IMG/VR virus record: IMGVR_UViG_3300012956_000001 | Span: 153,730-217,729 of that record | DNA length: 64,000 nucleotides | Strand: one strand, 5' to 3' | DNA from: a virus | Lineage: Duplodnaviria > Heunggongvirae > Uroviricota > Caudoviricetes | Shown: piece after piece, positions 12,501 through 55,249 of the stretch | Layout: every line of letters begins with the position of its first letter | How positions within the stretch are numbered: position 1 is the first letter of the stretch | Position numbers and translations under genes: made by a program | Notes under the pieces: generated by a model | What the model saw: only the letters and a program-made list of their open reading frames with translations | What the model was told of the DNA's origin: nothing | Databases searched by the model: none

Positions 12501-12914
12501 ATGAGCATAAATACTCAGTTACTTTGCACGTTTTGTACGGTTGAAACGCTGGAAGACACCCTCTCTAACATTGTTGCTAGTTACGACGTTGTATTCGATA
12601 CCATTTACGTACTTGAAAACGTAGATAGTCCTGAATCTCTCTGTTGTACGTATAATGTAGACACCGCCGTACCCCATCGCGGTGAAGTACCACCGGCCAC
12701 AATTTCCCTTCATCGTAAAAAGGCAACAAACACGTTATACACTATTAATGCACTTAACTTATTAATTGCTGATCTAAATAATGGTAACGTAGATAAAGGC
12801 TTTAAGGTGCCATGGGAAGATTATCGAAATACGATTTTGGTCACAGCATATAACAAGCTTAAAAAGATTACTACCAAGTTAAACGAGATTGTTAAAGTTC
12901 AAGATATCGCTTGA
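12501..12914 (+). CDS. hypothetical protein
   Basis: 137-aa ORF preceded by GGAG RBS. Confidence 0.4.
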   Translation: MSINTQLLCTFCTVETLEDTLSNIVASYDVVFDTIYVLENVDSPESLCCTYNVDTAVPHRGEVPPATISLHRKKATNTLYTINALNLLIADLNNGNVDKGFKVPWEDYRNTILVTAYNKLKKITTKLNEIVKVQDIA

Positions 12915-12938
12915 CAAACGCAGTAGTTTGAACTATCT

Positions 12939-12962
12939 TATGACCATGCCCGCACAGTAAAA
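12939..12962 (+). terminator. hairpin (cccgcacag-taaaat-ctgtgcggg) flanked by AGTAGTTT/AAACTACT inverted repeat
   Basis: 9-bp perfect stem seen directly; no clear U-tract. Confidence 0.35.
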
Positions 12963-13066
12963 TCTGTGCGGGAACATCGTCGAGAAACTACTTATAAGCA
13001 ATGGTTACGTTTTTAGATTCAAAACGATTTATCATTTACTAATTAAAAATCATTAGGAGTAATTTT

Positions 13067-28157: not shown

Positions 28158-28517
28158 ATGTCATATTGTAGATTTAGTAATGGTGATGTGTACATGTACC
28201 TTCATGCAGATGGTTTCATTGAATGTTGTAGCTGTTCATTCGAACCCACCACAAAAACCAATATGGGTGCGTTAGCAAAAATGCTAGGGCTTACACCAAA
28301 AACACATCCAGAACTGTATGAAGATTTTGATATGCCCGGTTCAGCACAGTTCAATCTTCGAAGTGAAGCAATTGAACATTTGTTGAAGCATAGAGAAGCC
28401 GGACATAGCATTCCAAAATATGCAATTGAAAAACTAAACAAGGAAATTCGAAACGATGGGGATTCTGTCAAGCCCGATGAAGATGGGGCATCATCCATCG
28501 TAGATTTAGGTAGTTGA
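28158..28517 (+). CDS. hypothetical protein
   Basis: 119-aa ORF. Confidence 0.35.
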   Translation: MSYCRFSNGDVYMYLHADGFIECCSCSFEPTTKTNMGALAKMLGLTPKTHPELYEDFDMPGSAQFNLRSEAIEHLLKHREAGHSIPKYAIEKLNKEIRNDGDSVKPDEDGASSIVDLGS

Positions 28518-28562
28518 GTTATACACTTGACTTTTGAATGGTTATGAGTTAGATTTACTACG

Positions 28563-28612
28563 TATAGATGAACAACGAAAGATGTTTTCGGACAAGTAGT
28601 TGTTCATCTATA
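28563..28612 (+). repeat. 14-bp perfect inverted repeat TATAGATGAACAAC / GTTGTTCATCTATA with 22-nt loop
   Basis: seen directly; lies between hypothetical gene and NAD-salvage genes. Confidence 0.6.
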
Positions 28613-28623
28613 ATAAAATACAC

Positions 28624-28648
28624 CTTAGATACAGATACGAGGTAACAT
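28624..28648 (+). promoter_or_regulatory. copy 1 (diverged) of repeated upstream element CTTAGATACA(A)GATA...
   Basis: accttagatacagatacgaggtaacatATG directly upstream of NMNAT gene. Confidence 0.4.
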
Positions 28649-29584
28649 ATGAGCAACGATACCCCTACAACGGATGTGGGCGTTATTATCGGTAGATTTC
28701 AAGTTCATCAGTTGCATGAAGCTCACATTGAGCTGATTGAGACGGTGAACAAGAAGCACGATAGGACGCTCATTTTTATTGGCCTGAGCCCACTCCGCAA
28801 CACCACCAGAAATCCTATGGACTTCAACACGCGTCGAAAGATGATTCTTGAATCATTTCCGCAGGTTGAAGTTTATTATATCGAAGATCATCGTAGTGAC
28901 GAAGTTTGGTCTGCCAACTTGGACCGAGAAATTACTAAGTGGTTGAAGCCCCACCAAACCGTCACACTCTATGGTAGTCGGGATAGTTTTATTTCGTCTT
29001 ATCATGGACGATACCAGACTGTTGAATTGCAGTCGAGCAAGATTATCTCTGGATCAGAAATCCGGCGGCGTATTTCGAATTCCTTTGAAAAGGATAAGTC
29101 GTATCGTGCCGGTGTGATTGCCGCGACATTTGATCGATATCCTACCAGTTACACGACCGTTGACATCGCAATCATAAACGAAAAGAATGAAGTTTTGCTG
29201 GGCAAGAAGCCCGGTGAGTTTGCTCTTCGATTCATCGGCGGATTCGCCAGCCCTGATTCCGACACATTCGAACAGGATGCTCGTCGTGAAGCAATGGAAG
29301 AAACTGGACTGAGCATTGATACTCTACGATATGTTGGATCGGCCAAGATCGATGACTGGCGGTACCGTGGTGAGATAGACAAAATCAAAACACTGTTCTT
29401 TGTAGGAAATTACATGTACGGTGCTCCCGAAGCAGGAGATGACATCGAATACGTGGAATGGGTAGATATGACGAGTCTGTTTTCTGGTAAGATTCACATT
29501 GTACCCGAACACATTCCGCTCGTTGTTATGCTCGGTGAATATGTGGGACAAAAGGCTTCGATTTTCAACAACAAAACCTCTTAG
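28649..29584 (+). CDS. bifunctional nicotinamide-nucleotide adenylyltransferase / Nudix hydrolase (NadM-Nudix type)
   Basis: N-terminal GVIIGRFQVHQLHEAH (cytidylyltransferase-fold HxGH-type motif), C-terminal Nudix box REAMEETGL. Confidence 0.7.
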   Translation: MSNDTPTTDVGVIIGRFQVHQLHEAHIELIETVNKKHDRTLIFIGLSPLRNTTRNPMDFNTRRKMILESFPQVEVYYIEDHRSDEVWSANLDREITKWLKPHQTVTLYGSRDSFISSYHGRYQTVELQSSKIISGSEIRRRISNSFEKDKSYRAGVIAATFDRYPTSYTTVDIAIINEKNEVLLGKKPGEFALRFIGGFASPDSDTFEQDARREAMEETGLSIDTLRYVGSAKIDDWRYRGEIDKIKTLFFVGNYMYGAPEAGDDIEYVEWVDMTSLFSGKIHIVPEHIPLVVMLGEYVGQKASIFNNKTS

Positions 29585-29607
29585 ATACAAGATATAGGAG
29601 AAATACA
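29580..29607 (+). promoter_or_regulatory. copy 2 of repeated upstream element CTCTTAGATACAAGATATAGGAGAAaTACAATG
   Basis: near-identical 33-nt string also at 29913-29945. Confidence 0.5.
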
Positions 29608-29910
29608 ATGACACCCGAAATCAGAACTATGGAAGAACAGGTACGAGAATTACAGAAGAAAATTGAATCTGCAAAAGCCGCTGAGTTGGAAGCAAATGAT
29701 CCGGCTAAAAAAGTTGCCGATTTGATCCATACCGTAACCTGTCACTCCAATCATGTCGATATGTGTGGCTGGGAGTATGAAAATTCAGAATCATATAAAA
29801 AGCCCGGTACCACTAGAAATCGATATTATGTTCGCGCACAAAAGCTTATTGTGAACGAAAATGTAAAGGAACTCATTCGTATTATCACCAAATTTCATTC
29901 AACCAGATAA
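29608..29910 (+). CDS. hypothetical protein between the two NAD salvage genes
   Basis: 100 aa, own copy of the repeated upstream element. Confidence 0.4.
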   Translation: MTPEIRTMEEQVRELQKKIESAKAAELEANDPAKKVADLIHTVTCHSNHVDMCGWEYENSESYKKPGTTRNRYYVRAQKLIVNENVKELIRIITKFHSTR

Positions 29911-29914
29911 CACT

Positions 29915-29942
29915 CTTAGATACAAGATATAGGAGAATTACA
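29915..29942 (+). promoter_or_regulatory. copy 3 of repeated upstream element CTCTTAGATACAAGATATAGGAGAAtTACAATG
   Basis: seen directly. Confidence 0.5.
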
Positions 29943-31322
29943 ATGACAAATTCCATTATGACCACGAGCAACATTCTTCGTAGTGACTCATACAAGGTCA
30001 GTCACCACAAGCAATATCCAGAAGGCACCACAGGCATCTATTCGTATATGGAGAGCCGCGGCGGCGCATTCCCCGAAACAGTGTTCTTTGGTCTTCAATA
30101 TTACTTGAAGGAATATCTCTCCCGCCAGATCACAATGGCCGATGTAGATTATGCCGAACAACGTATGAACAAGCACCTTGGGCCCGGCATTTTCAATCGT
30201 GCTGGTTGGGAACGTATTGTGACCAAGCACAACGGCTATCTGCCTGTTCGTATTAAGGCGGCACCAGAGGGGTTGGTCATTCCTACGCGTAACGTATTGA
30301 TGACCATTGAGAATACCGATCCTGAGTTGCCGTGGGTTACCAATTATGTCGAGACAATGTTGCTGAAAACATGGTATCCCATTACGGTCGCCACCATTTC
30401 CCGCGAAATCAAAAAGCTGATTCACCGATATCTTGATGAAACAGGTGACGTTAGTGGCATCGATTTCAAGTTGCATGACTTCGGATATCGTGGTGTGAGC
30501 TCCGAGGAGTCGGCGGCTATTGGTGGTATGGCACACCTTGTCAACTTCAAGGGTACGGACACCATGATTGCCCTTGAAGCCGCTGATATCTACTACGGCG
30601 AGGATATGGCCGGATTCAGCATTCCTGCCGCAGAACACTCGACCATTACCGCATGGGGTCGTGAGTTTGAATATGAAGCATATCAAAACATGATTCAACA
30701 GTTTGGTAATGGCCCATTGTACGCCGTGGTCAGCGACTCCTACAACATCTATGATGCATGTGAAAAGTTGTGGGGTGGGTCGTTGAAGGCACAAGTACTT
30801 GCTGCACCGGGCACATTGGTCATTCGTCCTGACTCTGGTGTACCACATGAAGTGGTTCGTCAGATTACCGAAATTCTCGGCCGTCAGTTTGGTTATACAA
30901 CCAACGACAAGGGCTATAAGGTACTGAATAAGGTTCGTGTCATTCAGGGCGACGGCATCAACTACGAAGAAATTGGTCGCATCCTTGAAGCATTGAAGAT
31001 TCGTGGATGGAGTGCTGACAACGTGGCATTCGGCATGGGCGGTGCCCTACTTCAGCAGTCGAACCGAGACACACAGAAGTTTGCCATTAAGGCGTCGAGC
31101 ATGGTTCGTAATGATCGTATTCGTGATGTATGGAAAGATCCGGTCACGGACAACGGTAAGCGCTCTAAGCGTGGTCGGTTGAAGCTTGTGTGGAATAGTG
31201 GCGTATTGGAAACGGTGGAAGAACATCAGCCCGGCCACGATGTAATGCAAACGGTTTGGGAAAATGGTGAATTGTTGGTGGATCAGACGTTTGATACCAT
31301 CCGTGGATCGGCCAAAATTTAA
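29943..31322 (+). CDS. nadV: nicotinamide phosphoribosyltransferase (Nampt/NadV)
   Basis: 459 aa; N-terminal ILRSDSYKVSHHKQYP and overall type-II PRTase layout characteristic of NadV. Confidence 0.85.
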   Translation: MTNSIMTTSNILRSDSYKVSHHKQYPEGTTGIYSYMESRGGAFPETVFFGLQYYLKEYLSRQITMADVDYAEQRMNKHLGPGIFNRAGWERIVTKHNGYLPVRIKAAPEGLVIPTRNVLMTIENTDPELPWVTNYVETMLLKTWYPITVATISREIKKLIHRYLDETGDVSGIDFKLHDFGYRGVSSEESAAIGGMAHLVNFKGTDTMIALEAADIYYGEDMAGFSIPAAEHSTITAWGREFEYEAYQNMIQQFGNGPLYAVVSDSYNIYDACEKLWGGSLKAQVLAAPGTLVIRPDSGVPHEVVRQITEILGRQFGYTTNDKGYKVLNKVRVIQGDGINYEEIGRILEALKIRGWSADNVAFGMGGALLQQSNRDTQKFAIKASSMVRNDRIRDVWKDPVTDNGKRSKRGRLKLVWNSGVLETVEEHQPGHDVMQTVWENGELLVDQTFDTIRGSAKI

Positions 31323-31339: not shown

Positions 31340-32014
31340 GTGTTGCAATTTCTTAAAGAATATCAACTAACTGAATCGTTTATTGTTGATGCAAGCAACG
31401 CGGCCTCGTGGCCATTAGATGTACTTAAACCTCTAGTAAGAACACATGAATCATTTGTGGCTGGTGGATACTTCAAAGATTTATTCAGTTCACCGCCCAA
31501 AGATCCTCGTGATATTGATGTGTATTTTTACAATCAAGAATCATTTGATCTAATGTATGATAAATTTAATGCGTCACCGGTATACAAAAAGAAGCACCGC
31601 GGTACAAATGCAATCGCATATGAACATATACCAACTGGACATAGTATTGATTTGGTAACTTCAATTTTTGGCAAGCCACAGGAAGTATTGCGGTCGTTTG
31701 ATTTTACTATAACTAAATGTGCATTAGTACAAAAATTTGGTGAATTTCATCTACTGATGCATGATCAGTTTATGGATCATGTCAACAACAAAGTTCTAAC
31801 TACAGATGCGTATATAGATGTAGGTGTGGATCTGACCTTTGAAGATTTAAATATTACCGCAGTAAAAGACATTGATTGTAATAAACTGTTCAATCGAATG
31901 ATAAAGTATACCTTGTATGGGTATAAGCCATCACACGAATTGAAGACACAACTATTTAGATCAATTAAAGTACAAAAGATCGACACAATTACACCAGTAA
32001 TTACAGAATATTGA
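31340..32014 (+). CDS. pol-beta-superfamily nucleotidyltransferase-like protein
   Basis: VAGGYFKDLFSSPPKDPRDIDVYF fits hG[GS]-x(9-13)-DhDh minimal nucleotidyltransferase motif; GTG start after GGGGGG. Confidence 0.4.
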   Translation: MLQFLKEYQLTESFIVDASNAASWPLDVLKPLVRTHESFVAGGYFKDLFSSPPKDPRDIDVYFYNQESFDLMYDKFNASPVYKKKHRGTNAIAYEHIPTGHSIDLVTSIFGKPQEVLRSFDFTITKCALVQKFGEFHLLMHDQFMDHVNNKVLTTDAYIDVGVDLTFEDLNITAVKDIDCNKLFNRMIKYTLYGYKPSHELKTQLFRSIKVQKIDTITPVITEY

Positions 32015-32809: not shown

Positions 32810-33982
32810 ATGAGTTTAGATCAGTTTTTTGATACACCACAATTTGATGTAGAGGCCGAGAAGGTTCGGTTTATCGAACACCTAGATCGCCTAAAAGCGA
32901 TGGATGTTCGTGAACAAACTCTATATCAGAAATGGTATGAATTGTCCACCGAATACAAGTGGGCATCAAACAAAGCATCCATCTTGAAGGCCAATATCTG
33001 GCGACCCACGAATATACAGGATCGTGACGGAACCATTGCCGAATTGAAGGCCCTTCGTCCTAGGCTGCGTTTTATCGAAAAGACTGATAAGAAGGGTATT
33101 GAGGATTGGCTCATTTATCGTGTATTGATGAGTACGTTTAACTTCGACCAAAATCCGGGCCGATTCCTCAGATTTCTCGTTGAAGATGAAGTAACGGACA
33201 AGGTGCTTGGTATTACGTCACTGGGCTCTGATGTCATTAACATTGGATGCCGTGACCGATATATTGGTTGGAATGAAACCGACAAGTTGGCGGGCATGTT
33301 GAATCACACTGCCATTGGCACAACCATTGTCGCAACTCAGCCATTCGGTTACAACTTCCTTGGTGGTAAGCTTATCGCTGCCTTACTTGTGACGCCTACC
33401 ATTCGAGACATTTGGAAGCGTGAATACGGCGAGACATTGGTGGGCATTACTACCACTTCGTTGTATGGCGACGGATCAATGTATAACAGCATTCCGTGGT
33501 GGAAGTCATTGGGTGAAACCACTGGTAAGATTCCATTGAAGCCCACGGATGAATACTACATGCCATGGCACGAGATCATCAAAACCAAATATCCAGAACA
33601 ATATGATAAGTTGTTGTGGAACGCTGTTGGTGGTCCGTCCACTGGCGTTAAACAGAAAATCATTAACGTGATTTTCAAAGAAGTGGGCGTCAAGCCATCA
33701 CAGTATGTACACGGTTTCAATCGTGGTGTCTACTTTGCTTCGTTGTACGAAAACACCAAAGAGTTTCTCCGTAAGGAAATCACCGATGCTGAATTGATAC
33801 CAATCAAGCGATCAACGTCGATGGACGCCGTTATGGAGTGGTGGACAAAGAAAGCCATTTCACGATACGAGAAGTTACATGCCGAAGATAGACTAAAGCC
33901 CGAAGTGTTGTTCTATAATGATGTAATGTTCCAAACATGGGACGAAACAAAAACCAAATATCTTGGTGAGGTTGGCCGATAA
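32810..33982 (+). CDS. hypothetical 390-aa protein inserted between clamp and clamp-loader genes
   Basis: no motif recognised; TAAATG overlap with clamp gene. Confidence 0.45.
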   Translation: MSLDQFFDTPQFDVEAEKVRFIEHLDRLKAMDVREQTLYQKWYELSTEYKWASNKASILKANIWRPTNIQDRDGTIAELKALRPRLRFIEKTDKKGIEDWLIYRVLMSTFNFDQNPGRFLRFLVEDEVTDKVLGITSLGSDVINIGCRDRYIGWNETDKLAGMLNHTAIGTTIVATQPFGYNFLGGKLIAALLVTPTIRDIWKREYGETLVGITTTSLYGDGSMYNSIPWWKSLGETTGKIPLKPTDEYYMPWHEIIKTKYPEQYDKLLWNAVGGPSTGVKQKIINVIFKEVGVKPSQYVHGFNRGVYFASLYENTKEFLRKEITDAELIPIKRSTSMDAVMEWWTKKAISRYEKLHAEDRLKPEVLFYNDVMFQTWDETKTKYLGEVGR

Positions 33983-54314: not shown

Positions 54315-54354
54315 AATGTATACATCTTAACACATCTAGATTTTGTACCTCAAT

Positions 54355-54403
54355 CCGGTTAGATTTATCACGTTCCTTGTAGGACGTTTCCAAATCTAAC
54401 CGG
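54355..54403 (+). repeat. 12-bp perfect inverted repeat CCGGTTAGATTT / AAATCTAACCGG with 25-nt spacer
   Basis: seen directly upstream of SPFH lipoprotein gene. Confidence 0.55.
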
Positions 54404-54415
54404 AGTTTTTATACA

Positions 54416-55249
54416 ATGAAGTTCACACGATTTGTTCCTCTTATTGCTCTTTTGACCCTCGCGGCCTGTGAGCGGGTCGATCAGACCGAATATTGTGTAA
54501 AGACACAATACGGCAACGTCACCGATAAGGGCTTGGAGCCCGGATTGACCAATACGGCGTCTCCCGGTGTCTCGCTGACCTGTTTCTCCCTAACGGATCA
54601 AAACTTCCCTGAGAAGACGAGCGATGAAGATCCGGGCACATTGACCCTCGAAGTCCAGACGGGCGGCGGCGAACAGCCACTAACCATTGCGGTCGAAGTC
54701 AGCGCAGTATATGCATTTGATCGTGCCTCGGTCTATGATGTATTCGTTGCCAAGCGTACCGAAGATGCTGCTGAAGTAGAAGTCTTTAACAGCATTCAGG
54801 AAGGTACTCGTGCGGCCTTCGGATCGTGGACGGTTACGGAAATCTTCTCCGATCAGCGTGCCACATTGTCGGACAGCCTTCGGGCCCACATTCAACGAAA
54901 GCTTGGCAATCGTGCGATTATGAAGAACGTGTTCGTGAAGCGAATTTCCTTGCCTAAGGCCATTGAAGATGCACGAATTGCATCGGCACAACAGGCACAG
55001 ATTTTGGCGAAGGCACAACAGCAATTTGTAATTGACAGTCAGAATGCCCGTGGTGTTCTTATGAAGGCCGAGGCCGACGCCAAGGCAAACGAACTTCGTG
55101 GTCAGTCATACCAGTCAAATCCCAAGTTGCTTGACCTTGAAATCGCCAAGGCGTGGTCCGATGGATTGAAGGGTGCATGTAATGGCGCATCAACTTGTAT
55201 CATCGGTGGCCAGGCACTTGATCTCCTTCCTCTCCGAAATCGTCAATAA
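54416..55249 (+). CDS. SPFH/band-7 (stomatin-prohibitin-HflK/C-like) lipoprotein
   Basis: signal peptide with lipobox LTLAAC; Ala/Gln-rich coiled coil ...AKAQQQFVIDSQNARGVLMKAEADAKANELRGQ typical of SPFH C-terminus; GC clearly above window average. Confidence 0.7.
   Translation: MKFTRFVPLIALLTLAACERVDQTEYCVKTQYGNVTDKGLEPGLTNTASPGVSLTCFSLTDQNFPEKTSDEDPGTLTLEVQTGGGEQPLTIAVEVSAVYAFDRASVYDVFVAKRTEDAAEVEVFNSIQEGTRAAFGSWTVTEIFSDQRATLSDSLRAHIQRKLGNRAIMKNVFVKRISLPKAIEDARIASAQQAQILAKAQQQFVIDSQNARGVLMKAEADAKANELRGQSYQSNPKLLDLEIAKAWSDGLKGACNGASTCIIGGQALDLLPLRNRQ

Follow-up and report, generated by a model that had tools for sequence, protein, structure and literature searches.

A reiterated, conserved leader precedes each gene of a putative phage NAD+ reconstitution operon and may govern translation initiation

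We examined a nicotinamide adenine dinucleotide (NAD+) salvage locus in a 64,000-nt stretch of a Caudoviricetes genome (IMG/VR record IMGVR_UViG_3300012956_000001, positions 153,730 to 217,729; this whole stretch is referred to below as the window), where three consecutive plus-strand genes are each preceded by a copy of a short leader element. The first gene, nadM (28649-29584), encodes a 311-aa bifunctional nicotinamide mononucleotide (NMN) adenylyltransferase (NMNAT)/Nudix protein of the ADP-ribose pyrophosphatase type; the second is a small open reading frame (ORF) of 100 aa (29608-29910) from the family phrog_12218; and the third, nadV (29943-31322), encodes a 459-aa nicotinamide phosphoribosyltransferase (Nampt). 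The original prediction, made from the sequence and its translations, had named the outer two genes as Nampt and a bifunctional NMNAT-Nudix enzyme, and both identities were confirmed by matches to Pfam families and solved structures. NadV matched NAMPT_N (E 3e-31) and NAPRTase (E 2.5e-56) and aligned over residues 11-458 with solved NAMPT structures (E 9e-151 to 7YQO and ~1e-138 to human NAMPT), and Nampt homologues were present in 2020 phage records, the best of them 57% identical to the window protein. NadM matched the NUDIX family (E 7.5e-12) and scored 18.9 bits against CTP_transf_like, under the cutoff of 21. Among solved structures, it is closest to the bifunctional NadM-Nudix enzymes 2QJT/2R5W and 2QJO (Francisella, Synechocystis), and both domains align, weakly, to 2QJT and 2QJO (E ~1e-8). 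The protein carries the sequence motifs GRFQ..HEAH (HxGH-type, with A replacing G) and ISGSEIRRR and falls in a clade (1949 homologues at E<=1e-60) that bears the JGI name "bifunctional NMN adenylyltransferase/nudix hydrolase."

According to the passages on the pathway in the source papers, phage-encoded Nampt and Nmnat together form NARP2, a NAD+ reconstitution pathway that overcomes Thoeris, DSR2, and comparable defences that deplete NAD+ (bioRxiv 10.1101/2024.02.11.579819; PMC9503650); the same passages of the preprint report that NARP2 is costly and that its operon is toxic to clone (bioRxiv 10.1101/2024.02.11.579819). The pathway makes NAD+ from nicotinamide, phosphoribosyl pyrophosphate (PRPP), and ATP and so consumes PRPP. 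As far as those passages describe the NARP2 of Vibrio phage KVP40 (Nampt plus Nmnat), the window encodes the same two enzymes, a Nampt and a NadM-type HIGH nucleotidyltransferase fused to Nudix, together in a phage genome. By its sequence, the enzyme pair is a new member of this known pathway, in agreement with its earlier assignment to a known type of phage NAD+ counter-defence, and by analogy with the NARP2 paper the window enzymes would have the reported activities and counter-defence role.

The leader is recognizable as a repeat before the small ORF and nadV, the two genes upstream of which the original prediction had placed it. The string CTCTTAGATACAAGATATAGGAGAA[A/T]TACAATG occurs at 29578-29610 and 29913-29945, and these are the sole two matches at up to 3 mismatches in the window, compared with a chance expectation of 0 (100 shuffles). 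Ungapped extension gave a 36-nt repeat (29578-29613 versus 29913-29948) with 35/36 identical positions, which takes in the two opening codons (ATG ACA) of each gene and is the top direct repeat of the window. A diverged copy upstream of the NMNAT gene had also been predicted and was recovered 5' of nadM at 28621-28651, with 25 aligned identities to each of the other copies; exact matches to the 10-mer CTTAGATACA are limited to 28624, 29580, and 29915. No copies were scattered inside genes in the 64 kb, and looser GATA..GATA scans of the same stretch found no further copies adjoining gene starts. Within the window, the leader is specific to the NAD module.

The three copies lie on the plus strand and share one layout. 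Copy 1 (29578-29613) is composed of a predicted stem arm CUCUUA (29578-29583), the loop GAUACAAGAUA (29584-29594), and a second arm UAGGAG that contains the Shine-Dalgarno sequence (29595-29600), followed by the spacer AAAUACA and the ATG at 29608; the nadM stop codon TAG (29582-29584) falls within it. In copy 2 (29913-29948), the corresponding elements are at 29913-29918, 29919-29929, and 29930-29935, with the ATG at 29943, and the stop codon TAA of the small ORF (29908-29910) ends 2 nt upstream of the copy. The nadM copy (28622-28651 in this layout) consists of ACCUU, the loop AGAUACAGAUAC, and GAGGU, then a spacer and the ATG. As a separate observation, a start context (A/U)UACA-AUG at a fixed distance after GGAG is common to the genes starting at 95, 29608, 29943, and 54416, for example AAGGAGTAATACAATG at gene 95, and it may be a preferred initiation context of the window phage that is independent of the GAUA loop.

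We further assessed the leader in relatives of the locus, which are IMG/VR viral contigs identified by protein search (L004, L058, L095, L096, L099, L100, L145, L146, L147, L257, and L258) or by DNA pattern (L113 and L174); a megablast search of 50,697 phage records found no close phage relatives of the locus at the DNA level. The NadM, small-ORF, and NadV proteins of L257 are 59.5%, 65%, and 68% identical to those of the window, and third-codon identity is 36-50%, so that synonymous sites are near saturation. The L257 small-ORF leader (TAGATACAAGATATAGGAGAAATACAATGACA) is nevertheless identical to its window counterpart at 32/32 nt, and the nadV leader at ~46/48 nt, the last codons of the small ORF included. 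Because both leaders persist in L257, at two positions and in two genomes, despite that divergence, a neutral duplication is unlikely, and these comparisons show the leader to be under strong purifying selection. Orthologous leaders of the form YCU..GAUAYR(A)GAUA..RGGAG were found before nadM/nadV in L004, L058, L095, L096, L099, L100, L113, and L145-L147, and orthologous copies stand 5' of nadM in all relatives.

The core of the element, GATA[CT][AG]A?GAT, had 24 matches in 13.5 kb upstream of nadM/nadV, compared with 35 over 934 kb of same-strand sequence elsewhere, a 48-fold enrichment over 14 loci from approximately five phage lineages. It was also detected in distant lineages, with NadM only 38-46% identical (L050/L057, L067, and L021). 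L050 and L057 have three core copies, before nadM, a 371-aa ORF, and nadV, and two of the three leaders are near-identical over ~30 nt within one NAD module; L067 has three to four copies, and L174 has a looser GAUA..GAUA form before nadM and nadV. In bacteria, 80 nadM loci (mostly Bacteroidota) with 155 upstream zones were free of the core. The confinement of the leader to the module, its conservation in L257, and the recurrence of its core in other phage lineages thus support, at the level of sequence, the initial suggestion of a dedicated, reiterated regulatory or translation-initiation cassette.

Wider searches added few loci. The exact 23-nt motif had no match in IMG/VR, and a NadM search of metagenome contigs returned only relatives of up to 48% identity. 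A combined hairpin and GATAY pattern selected 45 stretches in IMG/VR, only L004 and L113 being real, and a leader pattern selected 27, with L174 as the only NAD locus and the rest mostly representing one unrelated conserved element. This ~60-nt element, ACTCTAAATA(A/G)TTGAGTTTGTAAAGTTGTACTTGATATTAGATAAGGAG, is found in approximately 20 unrelated viral contigs within L151-L175 (e.g., L158 7306-7354) with no NAD genes nearby; it is a chance match of the leader pattern and might be a phage promoter or RNA element. Rfam contained no relevant match at E<=10 for window positions 28400-30100 or at E<=1 for six related loci, and known NAD+ riboswitches and other RNA families were rejected for lack of a covariance-model match. 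A recurrent intergenic motif resembling CTACT(A/T)TTTATAG was likewise dropped, its pattern being not above chance.

In minimum free energy (MFE) folds, copies 1 and 2 form a 6-bp stem CUCUUA/UAGGAG with the Shine-Dalgarno sequence inside and the 11-nt loop GAUACAAGAUA at its end, with predicted energies of -4.6 kcal/mol for copy 1 (56% of the ensemble) and -4.2 kcal/mol for copy 2. For the nadM copy, the predicted 5-bp stem ACCUU/GAGGU around AGAUACAGAUAC (-3.4 kcal/mol) also contains the Shine-Dalgarno sequence, so each copy is predicted to bury this sequence in a weak hairpin of 5-6 bp. Across relatives, the 5' pyrimidine tract follows the Shine-Dalgarno variant (CUCU/AGAG, CUCC/GGAG, CCCU/AGGG, UCCU/AGGA, and CCUUU/AAAGG). 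When stem covariation was scored with a permutation script, on leaders whose MAFFT alignment has no internal gaps, cognate flanks paired over a mean of 4.32 bp compared to 3.95 bp for exchanged flanks (permutation p = 0.004). The predictions and the covariation together lend the stem modest structural support. Elsewhere in the window, an inverted repeat of 13 bp without mismatches, enclosing a structured interior of 25 nt (54354-54404, +), lies 5' of the gene at 54416, and its 3' arm enters the Shine-Dalgarno sequence (ccGGAG) of that gene; it is possibly another translational control hairpin.

The region upstream of nadM holds two more conserved features. A putative sigma70-like promoter of the operon (28527-28555, +; TTGACT-17 nt-TAGATT, 9/12 consensus matches) has counterparts of the form TTGAC(A/T)-N17-TAnAnT at the same distance 5' of nadM in L004, L058, L095, L096, L099, L100, L113, L145, and L146. 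It is followed by a hairpin that we term hairpin 1A (28563-28612, +), which has a 14-bp outer stem, an internal loop GAAAGA/AGUA, a 4-bp inner stem, and a UUCG loop; the outer arms are a perfect 14-nt inverted repeat, and for the nadM leader the MFE prediction is -22.6 kcal/mol (z -3.4). Across 8 phages, the core of hairpin 1A is a constant 22 nt, GAAAGAURY-N5-GNNRAGUA, with an invariant GAAAGA/AGUA internal loop. Its helices covary: 93.8% of alignment cells pair versus 71% in shuffles, and 12/14 pairs change on both sides. None of 500 shuffles reached the score, and slid controls paired at 34-49%. A covariance model of hairpin 1A found one match per genome, at this position only (865 kb). By inspection, the AGUA/GAA arrangement is reminiscent of a loop E or sarcin-ricin motif. 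In L058, L146, and L147, hairpin 1A is replaced by a hairpin with a GAUA..GAUA loop. An upstream ORF in the nadM leader was considered and rejected, as it is not conserved and its AUG is absent in L095 and L099. In L257, the place that the promoter and 5' hairpin occupy in other relatives is taken by a gene for a GIY-YIG/I-HmuI-like homing endonuclease (1363-2004), between the DNA polymerase gene and nadM.

The gene between the two enzymes is itself variable. The small-ORF protein matched the phrog_12218 profile (E 4.9e-9), and so did, each in its own right, 30/30 aligned homologues; family members are ~100 aa long and number 440 cluster representatives at E<=1e-3. Residues H41, C45, H49, and C53 are invariant within a NH.D.CGW.YE motif. 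The protein had no match to a Pfam family, and its AlphaFold2 model (all-helical; predicted local distance difference test score, pLDDT, 81) had no fold match in PDB. The JGI call (P0001) starts at Met8 (29629) and gives 93 aa; we favour the start at 29608 because of the Shine-Dalgarno sequence, the repeat, and the 100-aa homologues. Five lineages (the window, L257, L058, L095, and L258) have the small ORF between nadM and nadV; it is absent, with a single leader between the enzyme genes, in L096, L100, L113, and L145-L147. In P0004, the closest NadM relative (85% identity), a long ORF lies 38 nt after nadM and the small ORF is apparently absent, and the nadM-nadV intergenic regions of L004 and L099 are, by translation, decayed 3' remnants of it. 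Since the small ORF is absent or decayed in these relatives, the two leaders flank a repeatedly lost gene. A role for the small ORF as a required regulator is unlikely, as relatives without it keep the leader. Compared with NARP2 as portrayed in the passages on NARP2, NadM, and NadV of the NARP2 paper and of Iyer et al., the window operon differs by this third gene and by the reiterated conserved leader: those passages describe no third gene between the enzymes and no such leader, and the leader was not described either in the literature searched on phage nadM/nadV. To the extent of our searches, we know of no earlier description of the ultraconserved leader and its reiteration, of the 5' hairpin of nadM, or of the recurrent third gene.

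Based on these results, we consider it somewhat probable that the repeats act at the RNA level as a leader specific to the module, controlling how translation of each cistron in the NARP2 operon is initiated. The operon of nadM, the phrog_12218 ORF, and nadV would probably be transcribed early from its own sigma70-like promoter, and the mRNA would begin with structured hairpin 1A. In front of each cistron lies a cassette of a pyrimidine anti-Shine-Dalgarno tract, the 11-nt loop, UAGGAG, a fixed 7-nt spacer, and AUG, with the upstream stop codon in or just before the 5' arm of the hairpin. The ribosome-binding site would stay closed until a terminating upstream ribosome opens the hairpin (translational coupling) or, alternatively, until a putative sequence-specific partner acts on the GAUA..GAUA loop, and in this way a pathway with reported cost or toxicity would be expressed in a coordinated and limited manner. 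Purifying selection would account for how little the two window copies differ, and recombination between copies may contribute: it would excise the small ORF cleanly, leaving the single-leader junction seen in relatives, and would also explain the gain and loss of this gene.

Several observations weigh against a translational leader of this kind. The hairpin is weak (approximately -4 kcal/mol, z ~-2), Shine-Dalgarno-occluding stems of at least 5 bp also occur in 10/42 other window genes that have a Shine-Dalgarno sequence, the AT-rich copies of L067 have little or no stem, and several relatives fold differently. Because comparable stems are found in those 10/42 genes and several relatives fold differently, what sets the leader apart is the conservation of its loop sequence and not its stem. 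Nor is the cassette obligatory: the nadV leader of L058 retains only the half from the Shine-Dalgarno sequence to the AUG, and the small ORFs of L095 and L258 have no cassette. In some relatives, GAUA..GAUAA overlaps the last codons of the upstream gene (D-N/T-R-stop), and therefore part of the motif conservation could be coding. The binomial p of 6e-29 for the enrichment of the core ignores shared ancestry among the loci, and the underlying counts are slightly biased because L113 and L174 were found by a motif-like pattern search. Finally, no trans-acting partner was found; a RegA-type repressor close to the clamp-loader genes was considered and rejected, the family having no Pfam match among the 20 neighbouring ORFs scanned.

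Four other explanations were weighed against the translational leader. We regard it as unlikely that the nadM hairpin and/or the GAUA-loop hairpins form a metabolite-sensing riboregulator that binds NAD+, ADP-ribose, nicotinamide, NMN, or PRPP and thereby opens the ribosome-binding sites. Such a device would suit an element that is restricted to NAD-salvage genes and to phages, and in the nadM leader two covarying helices are separated by the invariant internal loop GAAAGA/AGUA; moreover, the leaders of L058, L146, L147, and L174 contain two same-loop hairpins, the second with the Shine-Dalgarno sequence, and in L113 and L100, respectively, 9/10 and 8/10 positions of the outer stem's 3' arm are complementary to the ribosome-binding site. 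However, Rfam holds no match, known NAD+ riboswitches included, the internal-cistron copies of ~30 nt are too short for an aptamer, and an outer stem of 10-14 bp is too stable for easy switching. A version in which the GAUA-loop leaders and the nadM 5' hairpin sense the consequence of NAD+-depleting immunity, be it ADP-ribose, nicotinamide, NAD+, or a reporting protein, is to our minds just as improbable. If it were true, the NAD+ reconstitution enzymes would be translated only when needed, and the counter-defence operon would carry its own RNA sensor. A slightly smaller chance is given to a functionless recombination junction or duplication scar, the small ORF having been inserted, or being deletable, via repeated ribosome-binding regions in the manner of the promoter-early stem-loops (PeSLs) of T4-type phages. 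The repeats do flank a facultative gene, as seen from P0004 and the single-leader relatives without the small ORF and from the remnants in L004 and L099, and PeSL-mediated shuffling is documented (PMC2839356). Neutral copies should decay, yet both are near-identical in L257 despite saturated synonymous divergence; the motif also occurs before nadM and in lineages without the small ORF, and the promoter and terminator by which PeSLs are defined are both missing from the element. Recombination probably contributes, but as the sole explanation it is contradicted by L257.

We think it very unlikely that the repeats are internal promoters, either host sigma70-like (TAGATA-16 nt-TACAAT) or phage-specific, that give each gene its own transcript. 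Both repeats score 9/12 in a consensus scan, and GATATAGGAGA loosely resembles the initiation region of T7-type promoters, but the -10-like TACAAT overlaps the start codon, so that the transcript would lack the ribosome-binding site of its gene. In addition, promoter-like sites in the region are at chance level (13 found versus 10.6 expected), TATAGG and TACAAT vary in relatives while GAUA..GAUA and the stem persist, and the nadM copy sits ~65 nt 3' of a better promoter. Finally, we hold it highly improbable that the element is an operator in the DNA to which a NAD-metabolism transcription factor (NrtR, NiaR, or NadR) binds. NrtR controls bacterial nadM-nadV operons, with a dedicated cis-element before NAD salvage genes as in the phage locus (PMC2330246), and an NrtR-like Nudix gene adjoins nadM on the L059 contig. 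NrtR boxes are palindromic over 21 bp around a GT-N7-AC core, and the sequence of the NadR box reads TGTTTA-N6-TAAACA (PMC2330246), whereas the phage element is a non-palindromic direct repeat without the GT-N7-AC core, located at ribosome-binding sites between cistrons and far 3' of the promoter, and it is missing from the 80 bacterial nadM loci. NrtR and NadR operators were thus ruled out by motif shape, and the comparison of motifs largely refutes the operator reading. Readings of GAUACAAGAUA as a site for CsrA, TRAP/HutP, a Fur box, IHF, a MazF site, or a tRNA-anticodon mimic were also considered, and none fits all copies.

Translational operators that occlude a ribosome-binding site include the targets of T4 RegA, gp32, and gp43, E. 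coli thrS, the MS2 coat-protein hairpin, and coupling hairpins. By analogy, the window leader would share with them a short hairpin with the Shine-Dalgarno sequence or start region, a sequence-specific loop, a position before individual cistrons, and an upstream stop codon at the foot of the hairpin; in contrast, no RegA family member, as a candidate binding protein, was found among the 20 neighbouring ORFs scanned. In the guanidine-II (mini-ykkC) riboswitch, small hairpins in tandem share one conserved loop, with the Shine-Dalgarno sequence overlapped by the second hairpin. The phage leaders resemble this layout, and resemble the NAD+-I and NAD+-II riboswitches by their position before NAD genes, but they have no Rfam match, and the sequence and size of the loop differ. 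The PeSLs of T4-type phages are short regulatory cassettes in repeated copies on either side of small non-essential ORFs, which are gained or lost when the copies recombine (Arbiol et al. 2010, PMC2839356). The region 5' of nadM, with a sigma70-like promoter and then a stem-loop, is similar in arrangement, whereas the internal loop of the nadM hairpin is invariant and the hairpin is not followed by a U-tract. The 36-nt repeats differ from PeSLs in having no terminator, in having only a 9/12 promoter-like match with the -10 overlapping the ATG, and in being ribosome-binding leaders; they are present as three copies in one operon only and are conserved across deeply diverged phages, as opposed to many dispersed copies. 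A PeSL-like arrangement was also seen at 12913-12975 (+), where a sigma70-like promoter TTGACA-17-TATCTT is followed by a 9-bp GC-rich hairpin cccgcacag/ctgtgcggg.

The operon is embedded among phage replication genes. Its neighbours encode a family B DNA polymerase, an ATP-dependent ligase, a class II ribonucleotide reductase, a dUTPase, a DnaB-like helicase, and clamp-loader subunits, and the window has a coding density of 96%, with the called genes on one strand except for three short ORFs. Directly 3' of nadV, a 224-aa ORF (31340-32014, +) has a GG..DIDV nucleotidyltransferase-like motif and no Pfam match, and is 32% identical (E 3e-32) to an L100 ORF tagged PF26128 Gad2. Three genes 3' of nadV, a 390-aa ORF (32810-33982, +) matches Pfam DruA, a Druantia defence protein (E 8.5e-26), with a 57% identical homologue in L004 and a syntenic one in L100; this phage-encoded DruA-like protein might be a decoy or an anti-defence gene. 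Judged from these gene assignments, NARP2, the DruA-like gene, and the 224-aa ORF look like a small counter-defence cluster inside the replication module. Genes of NAD/ADP-ribose conflict also lie near the module in relatives, namely a Tad3 (PF25185) homologue at L058 13770-14234 and a Macro domain at L095 1-46.

In the literature searched, we found no published account of how phages control NARP2. The locus supplies two candidate RNA motifs outside Rfam, and it links a widespread, uncharacterised family of small zinc-motif proteins, phrog_12218, to NAD+ salvage in five lineages. A leader that stays invariant while the enzymes diverge to 59.5-68% identity offers a concrete handle on the control of NARP2.

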